Source: an uncultured Chloroflexia bacterium
GTDB taxonomy: Bacteria > Chloroflexota > Limnocylindria > Limnocylindrales > CSP1-4
Assembly (NCBI GenBank): GCA_963828165.1
Contig: CAWHDR010000001.1
Coordinates: 32,001-96,000, forward strand
Length of the DNA: 64,000 nucleotides
Direction of reading: 5' to 3'
Positions 44,764-47,960 of this stretch are shown piece after piece; positions within the stretch are counted from its first letter, which is position 1; the number at the start of each line of letters is the position of its first letter. A program made the translations under genes and the position numbers. Below the pieces are notes generated by a model. It did no database searches. It was not told the origin of the DNA and saw only the letters and a program-made list of their open reading frames with translations.

Positions 44764-44991
44764 ATGCAGCAGATGTACCACCCGTCGGACCTGGCCGCGA
44801 TGGATCCGCTGGTCCTCATGAAGAACCTCGACCACGTCCGTATGACCAGCCGGCGGCTCTCGTACATCCTCCAGCAGCAGGTCCACCTTTATGCCCCCGA
44901 GGCGAATGAGCTCCGCGAGCAGATCGACCGGTATGTCGAGGCGGAGCGCCAGATCGAGGGCGAGATGGCGAGGCGCCGCATCCGCGCCTGA
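44764..44991 (+). CDS. Small hypothetical helical protein
   Basis: 75 aa with host-like codon usage, its own TACGAT -10 box and a downstream terminator. Confidence 0.75.
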   Translation: MQQMYHPSDLAAMDPLVLMKNLDHVRMTSRRLSYILQQQVHLYAPEANELREQIDRYVEAERQIEGEMARRRIRA

Positions 44992-45012
44992 TCGGCCCCG
45001 ATCCGTCCAGAC

Positions 45013-45051
45013 GAAAAGCCCCGCTCGGTGGGGGTCCGGGCGAGGCTTTTC
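45013..45051. terminator. Bidirectional intrinsic terminator
   Basis: GAAAAGCC-CCGC...GCGA-GGCTTTTC between convergent genes. Confidence 0.75.
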
Positions 45052-45072
45052 GGGATGATTGCGATGCCGGTA

Positions 45073-45519
45073 TCAGGCCCCGGCGGGCACCGCGATGAGA
45101 CGGACGGGTGTCTCCGGTCCTCGGATGGGCTCGACCGGCGGTCGAGCGATGACGATGTCCACGGGGGCGATACCTGACGGGATGTCGGCGGGCGGGTCCT
45201 CGGAGACGCTCTCGGAAACGTCTTCCGCGGCTGGCGTGATGATGACCGTCATCGGCCTGCGGGCGGTCTGCTCCTCGCCCACGATCCTTGCCGCGAGCGC
45301 GGCAAGCGCCGGGGTGTCGAAGAGGCTGAAGCCGATCCCGTGGGCGGCCAGGTCATCCGTCACGAGCCCGTGAAACAGTCCACGCGCGGCGACGGCGCAC
45401 ATCTCGTCATAGAGCTCAGGCCAGCCCACGCGCCGACGGCGGTAGCAGAACCGGATGAACTCAACCGCCTCCGGGTCGGGGTCTCGCGTGGTGGCGGTGC
45501 GTGGATCCATCGATGGCAT
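45073..45519 (-). CDS. Hypothetical protein (148 aa)
   Basis: GGGAGG RBS. Conserved-looking core FIRFCYRRRRVGWPELYDEMC.VA.RGLF, then a low-complexity tail. Confidence 0.75.
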   Translation of the reverse strand: MPSMDPRTATTRDPDPEAVEFIRFCYRRRRVGWPELYDEMCAVAARGLFHGLVTDDLAAHGIGFSLFDTPALAALAARIVGEEQTARRPMTVIITPAAEDVSESVSEDPPADIPSGIAPVDIVIARPPVEPIRGPETPVRLIAVPAGA

Positions 45520-45721
45520 GCCCTCCCTTCGATCTTGGACGTGCGGTGGCCAGGGCCAACGCGCGCTCGGTCTTCCTAGCGTGGGAACCCAGGTCGGCCA
45601 TTCGTCGACCCGGCGACGGACGGTCGGTCTTAGCCTTCCCTGGGACCGGCCAACCTCCCTGGGACGCTCGGTGGCCGTATCCCGACATCCTAGGCCGGTC
45701 GGGACCTCGCCGGAAGGGGGC

Positions 45722-45754
45722 TTGTCCACGACTTCGTCCACCTTTTTGTCCACA
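45722..45754. promoter_or_regulatory. Cluster of three DnaA-box-like 9-mers
   Basis: TTGTCCACG (45722), TCGTCCACC (45734) and TTGTCCACA (45746), same orientation, 12-bp period. Confidence 0.55.
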
Positions 45755-45768
45755 CGAACGAACGTTCT
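45755..45768. promoter_or_regulatory. LexA SOS box (Gram-positive/Chloroflexota type)
   Basis: CGAAC-GAAC-GTTCT matches GAAC-N4-GTTC. A degenerate second site GAAC-GCCT-GTGC lies at 45772-45783. Confidence 0.65.
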
Positions 45769-45816
45769 CCCGAACGCCTGTGCGGAACGTGCACGCGCGG
45801 ACCGTTTCGCCGAGAT

Positions 45817-46887
45817 TCACGGCTCGCGCCGCGTCAGGCCGAGCCCCGGTCGATCGGCCAGGCGCCAGCGCTTGTCGGGTCCGAGGTCCAGGCCTTCGAA
45901 CGGGTCGTCGGCCAGCAGCAGGTTCCCGTCGAGATCGACCCATTCCGCGAGCGACGCGACCACGGCCGAGCCGGCGATCCCGACCGACGTCTCCTCCATG
46001 CAGCCCAGGAAGGTCCGAAAGCCGAGCTCGCGGGCTCGCTCGAGCATGTGCTTCGCCGGCCCGATGCCTCCGCACTTGGCGAGCTTCACGTTGACGCCCG
46101 CGACGACGCCGACGAGCGCCTCGAGGTCCTCTTCTGCGACCCCACTCTCGTCGGCGACGATCGGAAGCGGGGAGCGTTCCTGGAGCCAGCCGAGGTCCTT
46201 GTAAGCGCGTGCCGGGAACGGCTGCTCGATGAGCTCGACCCCCAGATCGACGAGCTCGGGCAGCAGCGTCTCTGCGTCCTCCCGCGACCAGCCGGTATTG
46301 GCATCCACCCTGATCGGCCCCGCGAAGACGTCGCGGACCGCCCGAAGGGTGGCCAGGTCGGATGGGCCACCGCACTTGATCTTGAGGGCCGGAAAGTCGG
46401 CCGCACGTCGTGCGCGCTCCGCCACGACCGCCGGCTCGTCGATCCCGATCGTGAAGTCGGTCGGCGGCAGGTCGCGCGGAAGCTCGAGGAGCGTATGGAC
46501 CGGCGTCTCGAGCACCTTGCCGGCCAGGTCGTGGAGGGCGATGTCCAGGGCACATTTCGCCGCTCCGTGCCCGCGGATGGCGCCCGCCCAGGTCGGTCCA
46601 AGCCAGGCCAATCCCTGTCGCGCTCGATCCGGGTCGGTCAGATCGATCTCGTTCTCATCGGCCACGGCCAGCAGAAGGGGCCAGACCGCGGCCATCGTGT
46701 CGGGGGTCTCGCCATAGAAACGATCCGGATATCCCTCCCCCACGCCGACGATGCCCGGATGGCGATCGTCGCGGATCTCCACGACGACCGTCGTGATGCG
46801 CGTCCCTTCGTTGTGGTCCGAGCGGGCGATCCGGAACGGGTCGCGCAGGGCCAGCGACAGGACCTCGTGGCTGACGGTCAGACCCAC
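45817..46887 (-). CDS. Dipeptide epimerase / N-acetyl-D-Glu racemase (DgcA-like, enolase superfamily)
   Basis: PFRIAR, LKIK, RVDANTGW, IEQP, ADES, NVKLAKCGG, GCM.E, DLDG. Confidence 0.9.
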   Translation of the reverse strand: MGLTVSHEVLSLALRDPFRIARSDHNEGTRITTVVVEIRDDRHPGIVGVGEGYPDRFYGETPDTMAAVWPLLLAVADENEIDLTDPDRARQGLAWLGPTWAGAIRGHGAAKCALDIALHDLAGKVLETPVHTLLELPRDLPPTDFTIGIDEPAVVAERARRAADFPALKIKCGGPSDLATLRAVRDVFAGPIRVDANTGWSREDAETLLPELVDLGVELIEQPFPARAYKDLGWLQERSPLPIVADESGVAEEDLEALVGVVAGVNVKLAKCGGIGPAKHMLERARELGFRTFLGCMEETSVGIAGSAVVASLAEWVDLDGNLLLADDPFEGLDLGPDKRWRLADRPGLGLTRREP

Positions 46888-47960
46888 GGCAGGGCCTCGA
46901 CGGCATCACGCACTGCCGGCCAGAGGCGATCGGCCCCGAATCGGACCGGGTCGTCGGCGGGCAACCCGGTCTCGGCCGACGTTGCCTCGATCACGGCCCG
47001 CGCTTCGTCCTCGGACGGGTAGAGCGAGGTGTTGAGGGCCACGGCGACGACCTTCGACGGCGCCACGAGCCCGGCGATCCGCTCGTGCAGCTCGATGAAC
47101 GGCGGCAGCGCCGCGATCGGGAATGAGGCCTCGGGAAGGTGGGTGAAGTCGTGCTCGACGAGGCCCGGCTTGTGGACGAGGACCATCGCGTGCGGCGTGG
47201 CGCCATGGATGAGCCCCATGGTCACCGCGCTGTAGGCAGGGTGGTCGATCGAGCCCTGACCCTCGACGATCACCCAGTCCGCGCGTTCTTCGCCCTGCTC
47301 GACCAGCCACTCGACGGTCCCATTGGTGAAATCGCTGATGACCCGGTCCACGGCGACGCCCCAGCCCTCGATCATCATCCCGGTCTGGCCGGTCGGCACC
47401 ATCGCCGCAGAGACACCATCACGCCGGGCCGCCGCGACCAGCTCCAGGGCGACCGACATCTTGCCGATCGCGCAGTCTGTCCCGACGGTCAGGATCACCC
47501 GCTTGCCGGCCACGTGTTGCCGTCCGACGGACGTCTCCATCCGGTCGGGCGGCCGGCGATAGTCGATCAGCCGCGTTCCCGCCGCCTCCGCCGCGGCGAC
47601 GAACTCGGGGTCGTCGCCCAGGAACTGGTGCAGCCCGGAATGGACGTCCAGTCCCGCGCGGATCGCCTCGAGGATGGTCATCCGCCAGTCACCCGGGAGA
47701 CGACCGCCGGTCGGAGCGATGCCGATCAGCAGCCCGTCTGGGCGCACGCGGCCGTGGAACGTCTCGTCGAGTGTGGCCACGAAGGGCACGTCGAAGCCGG
47801 GCATCACCTCGCCCAGGTTCCGCCCGACCATCGTCGAGTCCAGGATCGCGAGGATCTCGTCGCGGCCATAGCGGATGACCCCGAGCGCCGTCTTGGCGTC
47901 GTGGAGGTTGAACTGTCCCTCGGTCAGGATGACGAGACGTCGAGGCTCGGTGGGCAACAT
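46878..47960 (-). CDS. DUF1611 protein (DgcN-like D-glutamate N-acyltransferase)
   Basis: AKTA.G, GIAP.GG, SGLH, VGTDCAIGKM, TGQTG, EGQGS..HPAY. Forms the typical pair with the epimerase. Confidence 0.9.
   Translation of the reverse strand: MLPTEPRRLVILTEGQFNLHDAKTALGVIRYGRDEILAILDSTMVGRNLGEVMPGFDVPFVATLDETFHGRVRPDGLLIGIAPTGGRLPGDWRMTILEAIRAGLDVHSGLHQFLGDDPEFVAAAEAAGTRLIDYRRPPDRMETSVGRQHVAGKRVILTVGTDCAIGKMSVALELVAAARRDGVSAAMVPTGQTGMMIEGWGVAVDRVISDFTNGTVEWLVEQGEERADWVIVEGQGSIDHPAYSAVTMGLIHGATPHAMVLVHKPGLVEHDFTHLPEASFPIAALPPFIELHERIAGLVAPSKVVAVALNTSLYPSEDEARAVIEATSAETGLPADDPVRFGADRLWPAVRDAVEALPWV

Follow-up and report, generated by a model that had tools for sequence, protein, structure and literature searches.

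In this study, we analysed a stretch of 64,000 nucleotides (nt) from an uncultured Chloroflexia bacterium of the class Limnocylindria (contig CAWHDR010000001.1, positions 32,001 to 96,000; hereafter the window) and found on its minus strand a gene for a small protein of an uncharacterised family, which lies behind a distinctive control region consisting of three putative DnaA boxes and adjacent LexA-type boxes. Our reading is that this gene may encode a DnaA-activated, LexA-gated regulator that binds DnaA, a proposal that we consider evenly balanced between right and wrong and whose weakest links are the sign of the DnaA control, the mode of LexA action, and the predicted contact between the protein and DnaA. 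The protein family and the promoter design are new, whereas a DnaA-tied regulator under the control of both DnaA and LexA is known in kind. An initial annotation of the window had proposed an unrecognised gene behind a combined DnaA-type and LexA-type control region, and this was supported by phylogenetic footprinting and by the SOS-box and DnaA-box sets of the genome itself; the boxes, the -10 element, the palindromes, the ribosome-binding site, and the open reading frame (ORF) extending to 45073 that it described were all found in place (Table 1). The source genome (G000) comprises 3.31 Mb with 69.5% G+C and is 87.7% complete. All site orders are given as read on the minus strand unless marked as plus strand.

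The translation start that is kept among the relatives is the second ATG, at 45510, which gives a protein of 145 amino acids (aa) according to the orthologue alignment. The first ATG (45519), which would give the 148-aa product annotated initially, is ACG or AGG in most orthologues and is not conserved. The gene was present in 22 of 24 same-genus genomes. A search of a collection of 5.8 billion proteins yielded 4101 related proteins (E≤1e-3), and a profile of the 145-aa protein matched 308 representatives of 50% clusters; the names given to these relatives and clusters in their sources are 'hypothetical protein' or none. The protein consists of a helical core (residues ~11-84), a variable, disordered, low-complexity linker, and a short conserved C-terminal tail, which in Limnocylindria reads [VI]-R-[LF]-x-x-[VA]-P-[AS]-G-A. 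The core is ~70-85 residues long and contains the motifs F-x-x-F-C, WPELYDEMC, and GIGFSLF. The alignments showed that F18, C22, R25, W30, Y34, D35, M37, A41, L54, and G58 are invariant across the whole family and that P31 and F61 are nearly so. AlphaFold2 predicted the core confidently as four helices, with a predicted local distance difference test score (pLDDT) of 92-97 over residues 11-80 (alignment A1); the more diverse alignment A5 gave a mean pLDDT of 86.4 and a predicted template modelling score of 0.73.

The initial annotation had seen no recognisable family in this protein, and the searches agreed with it. No Pfam family (E≤0.1) and no NCBIfam family was found for the 145-aa protein, PHROGs gave no significant match to it (best E 0.044), and a sequence profile search of the PDB gave no match at E≤10 and hence no solved look-alike by sequence. 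At the level of structure, Foldseek searches of the PDB (with two models) and of BFVD returned no match at E≤0.001. The best ESM Atlas score for the protein (0.81) is at a level also reached by shuffled proteins, and the best hit of a wide VIA-align search, 7z0o_G (Z 5.9, root-mean-square deviation 2.3 A, 57 residues aligned), is at a level rated common. These structural searches rule out no fold family. Neither a membrane segment nor a signal sequence was found in the protein. ARAGORN, which was run for comparison with the C-terminal tail, found no transfer-messenger RNA in the incomplete G000 genome. The passages of the literature on Chloroflexi DnaA boxes, on Limnocylindria, and on the Dehalococcoides LexA/SOS box that were available contained no description of this gene or of its control region.

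The range of the family was examined in a sample of 401 Chloroflexota genomes, of which 58 had a match, G000 included. Inside Limnocylindria, matches were found in 23 of 23 genomes of family f1, 15 of 17 of f3, and 2 of 2 of f4, and in none of four genomes of the streamlined 1.1-Mb sister family f2. Outside this class, homologues were detected in all nine sampled genomes of family f20, which are closed and measure 1.4-1.9 Mb, and in a few further families with small genomes; these homologues are ~75-100 aa long and have no C-terminal tail. We suspect that these small-genome carriers are Dehalococcoidia. If this holds for f20, cultured relatives may allow bench tests. Overall, the protein belongs to an uncharacterised family that has neither a family nor a fold assignment and is known here only from some Chloroflexota.

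The control region upstream of the gene contains three co-oriented 9-mers with a 12-base-pair (bp) period. Box 1, which equals the universal DnaA consensus, is the likely anchor site of the row: perfect TTGTCCACA/TTATCCACA 9-mers occur only six times in G000, and one of them is box 1. Pairs of GTGGAYRA sites 2-6 nt apart were detected at only three loci in G000, and a run of three only at this locus. The genus-level set comprised 100 loci of close relatives (20 plus 80, with some genomes in both), corresponding to 85 distinct upstream sequences. Three GTGG-core repeats at exactly 12 bp were present in all 100 loci and all 85 distinct sequences, with the strict pattern in 64/85. Box 1 reads TGTGGA[CT]AA in 66/85 and TGTGGAAAA in 17/85, box 2 reads [GC]GTGGA[CT]GA in 80/85, and box 3 reads [CG]GTGGACAA in 85/85. 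Beyond the genus, 32 Limnocylindria loci (families f1, f3, and f4) were compared; at least two boxes at 12 bp were found in 29 of them, three GTGG repeats in 26, and a perfect TGTGGAYAA in 24, and there (A/G)CCCCCTTCC and TAnnAT come after the boxes. These data indicate that the DnaA-box row is a class-wide trait of the promoter of this gene, not of the whole protein family.

The same 9-mers recur at the likely origin. GTGG-core 9-mers were counted in the dnaA-dnaN gap, the customary site of oriC and likely oriC here, in 28 family genomes. The commonest were CGTGGACAA (10), GGTGGACGG (10), and GGTGGACGA (9), followed by TGTGGACGG (8), TGTGGACAA (8), GGTGGACAA (8), and TGTGGATAA (7); all three box variants of our promoter are therefore among the commonest 9-mers of the gap, and no enrichment was seen upstream of dnaA. 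In G000, this gap (C1:1236861-1237302) carries several DnaA-type boxes in both orientations as well as an AT-rich stretch. The GC skew of contig C1 showed no clear origin, and boxes with at most one mismatch formed no cluster near dnaA, the boxes of the gap being seen only by a relaxed scan and the family-wide count. Taken together, the match to the consensus, the variants shared with the gap, and the recurring geometry are three independent lines of evidence suggesting that the promoter repeats are DnaA boxes.

A question raised by GTGG-core direct repeats next to a promoter is whether they could be the operator of another direct-repeat binder, for example a response regulator or MraZ. The latter recognises series of direct repeats with a GTGG core, as in the mraZ/dcw promoter, and G000 has an mraZ gene. 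Its promoter (C1:2569549-2569575) contains three AAGTGG[TG] units at 10 bp downstream of a TACTAT -10 element and looks like a textbook MraZ operator. Unlike these MraZ repeats, which show no conservation 3' of GTGG, the unit of our promoter is [TGC]GTGGA[CT][AG]A at 12 bp, with no AA before GTGG and with conservation through A-Y-R-A. Moreover, the same 9-mers occur in the dnaA-dnaN gap and at the rsmG and parAB promoters. We therefore regard a binder other than DnaA as very improbable.

The -10 element lies at a nearly fixed distance from the putative DnaA boxes, 28-30 nt past box 3 in 85/85 relatives and exactly 29 nt in 70/85. With the -10 placed at -12 to -7, the three boxes span ~-75 to -43. 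Box 3 is followed by GCCCCCTTCC(G/C) in 55/85 relatives and by close variants in the rest. No site within 44950-45850 was called by a simple scan for sigma-70 promoters and terminators, as is expected when the -35 is poor. We then asked how often this geometry occurs in the genome. Among 608 GTGGAYRA sites of G000, eight were followed by TAnnnT at 28-30 nt, compared with 16 in total for the other 47 spacings. The eight promoters precede rsmG/gidB, parA-parB, a PNP_UDP_1 gene with an AlkZ-like glycosylase, a PALP enzyme (two promoters, one with the same ACCCCCTTCC), a major facilitator superfamily transporter, an unknown 344-aa protein followed by a MerR-GAF regulator, and the gene described here. 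On this basis we put them forward as a first outline of a candidate DnaA regulon with fixed geometry; in B. subtilis, DnaA has eight published direct targets, one of which is trmEF-rsmG-noc (PMC8203912). The seven other promoters mostly have a TTGAC-type element in the place of the -35 (TTGACC, TTGACG, TTGTCC, or TTGTGG; the comparison drew on C1:873759, 1134174, 2017201, and 2893046), and among the eight ours has the weakest -35 (TTCCGG) and is the only one with three boxes.

We infer from the fixed distance to the -10, the poor -35, and the order of a strong anchor followed by weaker co-oriented boxes that this promoter may be activated by a cooperative DnaA oligomer. The opposite sign would mean that DnaA represses the promoter and that the protein is produced at low DnaA activity or upon titration of DnaA. 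DnaA indeed represses many promoters, including that of dnaA (PMC8203912) and, together with LexA, those of E. coli uvrB, recN, and dinJ (PMC6015884). Here, on the contrary, the boxes end at ~-43, upstream of the -35 and -10 without overlap, the -35 is the weakest of the eight same-geometry promoters, which is typical of activator dependence, and the box-to-(-10) distance of 28-30 nt in 85/85 relatives suggests contact with RNA polymerase. Repression by DnaA is thus an improbable explanation, and activation is the sign assumed in what follows.

The second component of the control region is a perfect GAAC-N4-GTTC box placed directly upstream of box 1. In G000, this motif was found at 67 sites compared with ~26 expected from base composition, and AT-flanked copies lie at lexA, the imuA-imuB-dnaE2 cassette, a radical-S-adenosylmethionine gene, a uvrA-like gene, and the helicase gene mrfA. 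No perfect box was detected around recA in the 2.6 kb examined. From its sites, GAAC-N4-GTTC is the SOS box of G000, which bears out the initial assignment as a LexA-type box by its place at lexA and core SOS genes. Two subtypes can be distinguished: the boxes of the RecA-like (imuA-like)/imuB-like/dnaE2 cassette (C1:1849575 and 1853448) read TAGAAC-N4-GTTCTA, and other SOS genes of G000 use TCGAAC-N4-GTTCGA. As a separate observation, two perfect, AT-flanked LexA boxes 32 bp apart (C1:1390152 and 1390184) lie just past the dinB stop codon, ~330 bp before the next called gene (FTCD_C domain), and a small unannotated gene may be located between dinB and this gene.

Conservation of both box types upstream of orthologues had been set as a test of the initial annotation. 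It was seen throughout for the DnaA boxes (85/85); for the LexA box it was seen in 59/85 relatives, where a perfect GAAC-N4-GTTC, its N4 spacer occurring in 14 versions, lies at most 22 nt upstream of box 1, and was not universal, failing in a sub-clade and in families f3 and f4. Where the box is lost, an inverted DnaA-type (fourth) box stands instead in 17/85, and neither is present in 9/85. Further upstream, a weaker NNAC-N4-GTTC (mostly GCAC) is kept at least 26 nt upstream of box 1 in 80/85, with its main position at -29/-30 (78 hits). The series CAC-GCAC-GTTC-C-GCAC-N4-GTTC at 45772-45800 on the minus strand is likewise kept in 80/85, including relatives without the perfect LexA box. No conserved TAnnnT and no recognisable second promoter overlapping the LexA box was found upstream of box 1. 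By analogy, we infer that LexA would act most economically by competing with DnaA at the neighbouring anchor box. Family f4 ties the gene to DNA damage in a second, independent way: at the two loci examined (L148 and L149), it immediately follows dinB in the same orientation, with DnaA boxes in the short gap.

It is also possible, though we lean against it, that the GAAC-N4-GTTC box does not control this promoter at all and is either a leftover or a LexA site for the end of the upstream racemase-like gene, acting as a roadblock to read-through. Its position at ~-77 to -88 and the lack of a perfect copy in 26/85 relatives and in all six f3/f4 loci fit this explanation, and binding of M. tuberculosis LexA without apparent regulation has been described (PMC3381160). 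Against it stand the fixed place of the box next to box 1, the half-sites kept across the 14 spacers in the 59 loci, and the weaker second box kept one step upstream in 80/85; in addition, the inverted fourth DnaA box that replaces the lost copy in 17/85 suggests that this position is part of the same control unit.

The proposed action of the protein is based on a predicted complex with DnaA. DnaA of G000 (460 aa, with a family alignment of 14 sequences), the one partner tested, was modelled together with the 145-aa protein (alignment A1), and this gave a complex score of 0.64 (0.62, 0.65, and 0.64 in three runs), whereas the best of three controls scored 0.00. The pair thereby passed a mark that 116 of 157 solved complexes and 2 of 215 mismatched pairs attain, counts that are approximate, as own alignments were used. 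The runs shared at least 67% of the contacts, and the partner pLDDT was at least 61. On the DnaA side, the predicted interface comprises residues 129-136, 139, 142-144, 146-147, 149-151, and 155-156, which form the N-terminal portion of the AAA+ domain immediately preceding Walker A (G163-T170, alignment A4), together with residues 292 and 295. On the side of the protein, it comprises residues 31-32, 34-35, 38-39, 42, 50-51, 60-64, and 66, which fall in the WPELYDEMC and GIGFSLF motifs; Y34 and D35, both invariant, and the nearly invariant P31 and F61 are among them, and the C-terminal tail lies outside. This model gives in-silico support for binding of the protein to the AAA+ domain of DnaA. 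As to regulators of DnaA already known, YabA (PF06156) and Sda (PF08970) had no match in G000, and only one Bac_DnaA-domain gene and hence no Hda-like paralogue was found there, an absence left unproven by the 87.7% completeness of the genome.

Alternatively, the DnaA complex could be a false positive and the protein a DnaA/LexA-controlled checkpoint effector of the Sda/SulA type with another target, such as division proteins, kinases, the clamp, or polymerase IV. This view, which we hold to be tentative and somewhat unlikely, draws on the dual control that mirrors sda, whose product inhibits kinases and not DnaA, on the place of the gene after dinB in family f4, and on the conserved C-terminal tail, which must do something else than contact DnaA; DnaA was, moreover, the only partner submitted to complex prediction. 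It is opposed by the DnaA score of 0.64 against 0.00 for all three controls and by an interface that uses the most conserved surface residues of the family. The division inhibitor suggested by the initial annotation fared no better: nothing pointing to one was found, the protein having no membrane segment, no division-inhibitor domain, and no Pfam match, and the partner prediction points to DnaA instead.

Between the promoter and the gene lies a leader of 131-202 nt in 64 distinct relatives, which is hairpin-rich and contains a conserved internal motif of the GCTTCGTATTGCC type. Around the start codon, CC-ATCGATG-GA is near-invariant (columns 222-240 of leader alignment A2, 90-100% conserved). 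A hairpin (H1) spans the first ~35 nt of the leader; it was drawn by eye and then counted on the alignment. Across 40 sequences, 78.9% of the cells were paired, compared with 12-46% for a slid partner column, and five of eight pairs change on both sides. The covariation score of H1 was 0.223 versus 0.147 for shuffled alignments, and none of 500 shuffles reached 0.223. Of the two TCCCAGGGA palindromes noted initially, both are present; the first forms the loop of this conserved 5' hairpin, and the second is limited to the closest relatives. In Rfam (E≤1), the stretch 44900-46000 matched no family apart from two chance hits to microRNAs.

Four soil RNA libraries, each from a different study, yielded contigs that match the gene at 85-99% likeness. 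Such contigs carry no strand, true ends, or expression level, and DNA can occur in such libraries; what they show is only that the leader and the gene share one molecule in RNA-derived assemblies. Their stops differ (45652, 45659, 45700, and 45749), and the bins 45756-45887, which are uncovered in four runs, are not evidence of a transcript boundary.

Based on these findings, the following mechanism can be proposed. DnaA, probably as a cooperative oligomer of the ATP form nucleated at box 1, would fill the row and activate the promoter, so that the output of the gene would report the level or activity of DnaA in the manner of Bacillus subtilis sda. Where one strong and one weak LexA-type box abut box 1, as they do in this and several sister genera, bound LexA would hinder the loading of DnaA at box 1 (anti-activation) or block read-through from the upstream gene, and DNA damage would add to induction. 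The transcript would open with the conserved hairpin in a leader of ~169 nt. The protein would dock on the N-terminal face of the DnaA AAA+ domain and restrain oligomerisation, like YabA and Soj; the outcome would be a negative feedback that brakes initiation under replication stress and DNA damage. A bolder version is doubtful, although conceivable: a self-contained DnaA homeostat of a new kind, in which the promoter reads DnaA-ATP through the anchor box and two weak boxes placed at a set distance from the -10, a new protein family docks on the oligomerisation face of the AAA+ domain and blocks initiation, and LexA next to the anchor box serves as an anti-activator, so that DNA damage would lift the restraint on this brake. 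Such a homeostat would hold the chief control over initiation in those Chloroflexota lineages that showed no Hda, YabA, or Sda, and would be an SOS-inducible inhibitor of initiation.

Several observations weigh against this proposal. With regard to DnaA control, boxes upstream of a -35 can also repress, which bears on the sign of regulation, and the arrays of E. coli oriC have a period of 11 bp, not 12 bp. None of 14 loci of other classes had the upstream DnaA-box design, so the role of the protein needs no such promoter. With regard to LexA, the relatives without a perfect box include a genus sub-clade, and the six f3/f4 loci without it (L148-L152 and L157) are all that were sampled there; these absences mean that LexA control is at most lineage-specific. 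At ~-77 to -103, the LexA boxes fall outside the core promoter and have no classical repressor overlap. With regard to the protein, the complex score is a model confidence obtained from shallow own alignments (14 and 26 rows), and the second Cys of WPELYDEMC is substituted in some members. With regard to the transcript, RNAalifold found four trivial pairs on the whole leader (42 sequences) and none on its first 48 nt. Finally, one RNA-library contig (X15 record 7) covers 45521-45749 and reaches 58 nt upstream of the -10, inside box 1; this would be explained by a start further upstream, by read-through out of the preceding gene, or by DNA present in the library, and it leaves the transcription start unproven.

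To our knowledge, the control of replication initiation is understood in detail only for a few model bacteria, each with different proteins (Hda, SeqA, YabA, Soj, SirA, and HobA), and we know of nothing on this subject for Chloroflexota, which are abundant in soil. The locus is thus a testable candidate for a conserved small protein that is predicted to bind DnaA; its well-conserved DnaA-box promoter would make a good natural reporter of DnaA activity, and a LexA site so placed could block an activator instead of RNA polymerase. In its logic, the system seems closest to B. subtilis sda, and in its predicted action to YabA and Soj, although the protein belongs to none of these families. As in sda, which is activated by DnaA and repressed by LexA (PMC11925247) and for which the initial annotation had rightly named both kinds of site, the two regulators would converge on the gene of a small protein and join replication status with DNA damage (PMC11925247, PMC8203912). 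Unlike Sda, the 145-aa protein is predicted to bind DnaA and not to inhibit sporulation kinases; there is no sequence relation between the two, and the LexA box lies far upstream of the core promoter here.

YabA forms tetramers, contains a coiled coil as well as a zinc-binding domain, and also binds the clamp. The 145-aa protein differs from it in having a four-helix domain with a disordered tail and no family match; like YabA, Soj, and DnaD, it would contact the AAA+ domain of DnaA (residues 129-156). F132 of the G000 DnaA, which lies in the predicted interface, is presumably the counterpart of B. subtilis F120 by motif alignment. In B. subtilis, F120, H162, and A163 of DnaA matter for control by YabA (PMC4705661), and YabA and Soj act on the ATPase domain (domain III), where they target oligomerisation determinants (PMC5295017). 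In the literature examined, no control of YabA by DnaA or LexA is described.

Hda, itself an AAA+ protein and paralogous to DnaA, stimulates ATP hydrolysis in concert with the clamp, and the Caulobacter gene hdaA is activated by DnaA. The proposed protein would resemble Hda of E. coli (PMC5295017) and HdaA of Caulobacter as a brake on DnaA coupled to replication status, and differs from Hda in being a 145-aa protein without an ATPase fold. YqaH of a B. subtilis prophage is likewise a small protein that targets DnaA (bioRxiv 10.1101/2020.11.18.388090); unlike it, the present family occurs in chromosomal, syntenic contexts and has no significant PHROGs match. With respect to the control region, E. 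coli uvrB, recN, and dinJ are also co-regulated by DnaA and LexA through adjacent or overlapping boxes, competition between the two having been shown for uvrBp3 (PMC6015884). In these cases both proteins repress and the products are those of repair genes, whereas here the geometry suggests activation by DnaA and the product is a putative regulator of DnaA.

Table 1 Features of the 145-aa gene and its control region (window coordinates unless contig C1 is named; positions with a sign are relative to the inferred start)
Feature	Coordinates	Strand	Basis or remark
Coding sequence, 145 aa plus stop codon	45073..45510	-	ORF list, orthologue starts, alignments
Shine-Dalgarno sequence AAGGGAGGG	45521..45529	-	10 nt upstream of the conserved ATG
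5' untranslated leader (inferred), ~169 nt	45511..45679	-	start inferred from the -10
Two TCCCAGGGA palindromes	45645-45637 and 45664-45656	-	sequence
5'-terminal hairpin H1, arms CGGCCA / TGGCCG, loop with CCCAGGGAGG	45646..45676	-	alignment A3
-10 hexamer TAGGAT	45686..45691	-	TA[CG][GC]AT in 85/85 distinct relatives
CCCCC-TTCCGG, conserved; TTCCGG is a weak -35	45710..45720	-	-42 to -32
Putative DnaA box 3, CGTGGACAA	45722..45730	-	~-51 to -43; 1 mismatch; plus strand TTGTCCACG
Putative DnaA box 2, GGTGGACGA	45734..45742	-	~-63 to -55; weaker, 2 mismatches to TTGTCCACA; plus strand TCGTCCACC
Putative DnaA box 1, TGTGGACAA	45746..45754	-	~-75 to -67; 0 mismatches to consensus; plus strand TTGTCCACA
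Proximal LexA-type box GAAC-GTTC-GTTC, perfect	45756..45767	.	1 nt from box 1; ~-88 to -77
Distal degenerate box, GCAC-N4-GTTC (minus) / GAAC-N4-GTGC (plus)	45772..45783	.	sequence
Upstream neighbour, enolase-superfamily DgcA-like (racemase-like) gene	45817-46887	-	stop codon 45819-45817
RNA-library contigs joining leader and coding sequence	45316-45700 (X16 record 14); 45388-45652 (X19 record 30); 45493-45659 (X17 record 23)
Seven further candidate DnaA-box promoters	C1:1134174, 2551268, 2017201, 2893046, 2893304, 873759, 1734505		outside the window; box 28-30 nt before TAnnnT

The neighbourhood of the gene was also examined. Several f1 genera share the racemase-like gene at the upstream position; no functional clue was drawn from this synteny, since the racemase-like gene shows no evident link to the 145-aa gene. 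Together with a DgcN-like gene (DUF1611, 46878-47960), it forms a DgcN-like/DgcA-like pair at 45817-47960 on the minus strand with a 10-bp overlap, the resemblance of both being far under the NCBIfam equivalog cut-offs. At only two loci of other classes (L138 and L143, from closed genomes of 1.4-1.9 Mb), the short homologue has an S41 C-terminal processing peptidase gene (CtpB-like) as its neighbour; the two genes point the same way in one of these genera and converge in the second. In B. subtilis, the SOS checkpoint protein YneA is a degradation substrate of CtpA (PMC6051672), and no direct link of this kind was seen for the present protein because it has no signal sequence or membrane segment.

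On the other side, the 145-aa gene converges with a plus-strand ORF of 75 aa (44764-44991) that has no Pfam or NCBIfam family and only weak PHROGs matches (best E 0.015). RNA-library contigs from three to four studies cover this ORF and diverge right past its stop codon at 44991, and an ORF of ~78 aa, also without a family, occupies the same relative position in another genus (L113). It is adjoined by a plus-strand N6/N4 DNA methylase gene (PF01555, 43243-44721), and a methylase gene was also found downstream of the homologue in a further genus (L131). Because ATCGAT overlaps the start codon of the 145-aa gene in all close relatives, a restriction-modification tie between the start-codon ATCGATG and this methylase was considered and then dropped, as the sites are not clearly avoided in the genome: ATCGAT was found 1532 times compared with 1757 expected, and CATCGATG 261 times compared with 252 expected.

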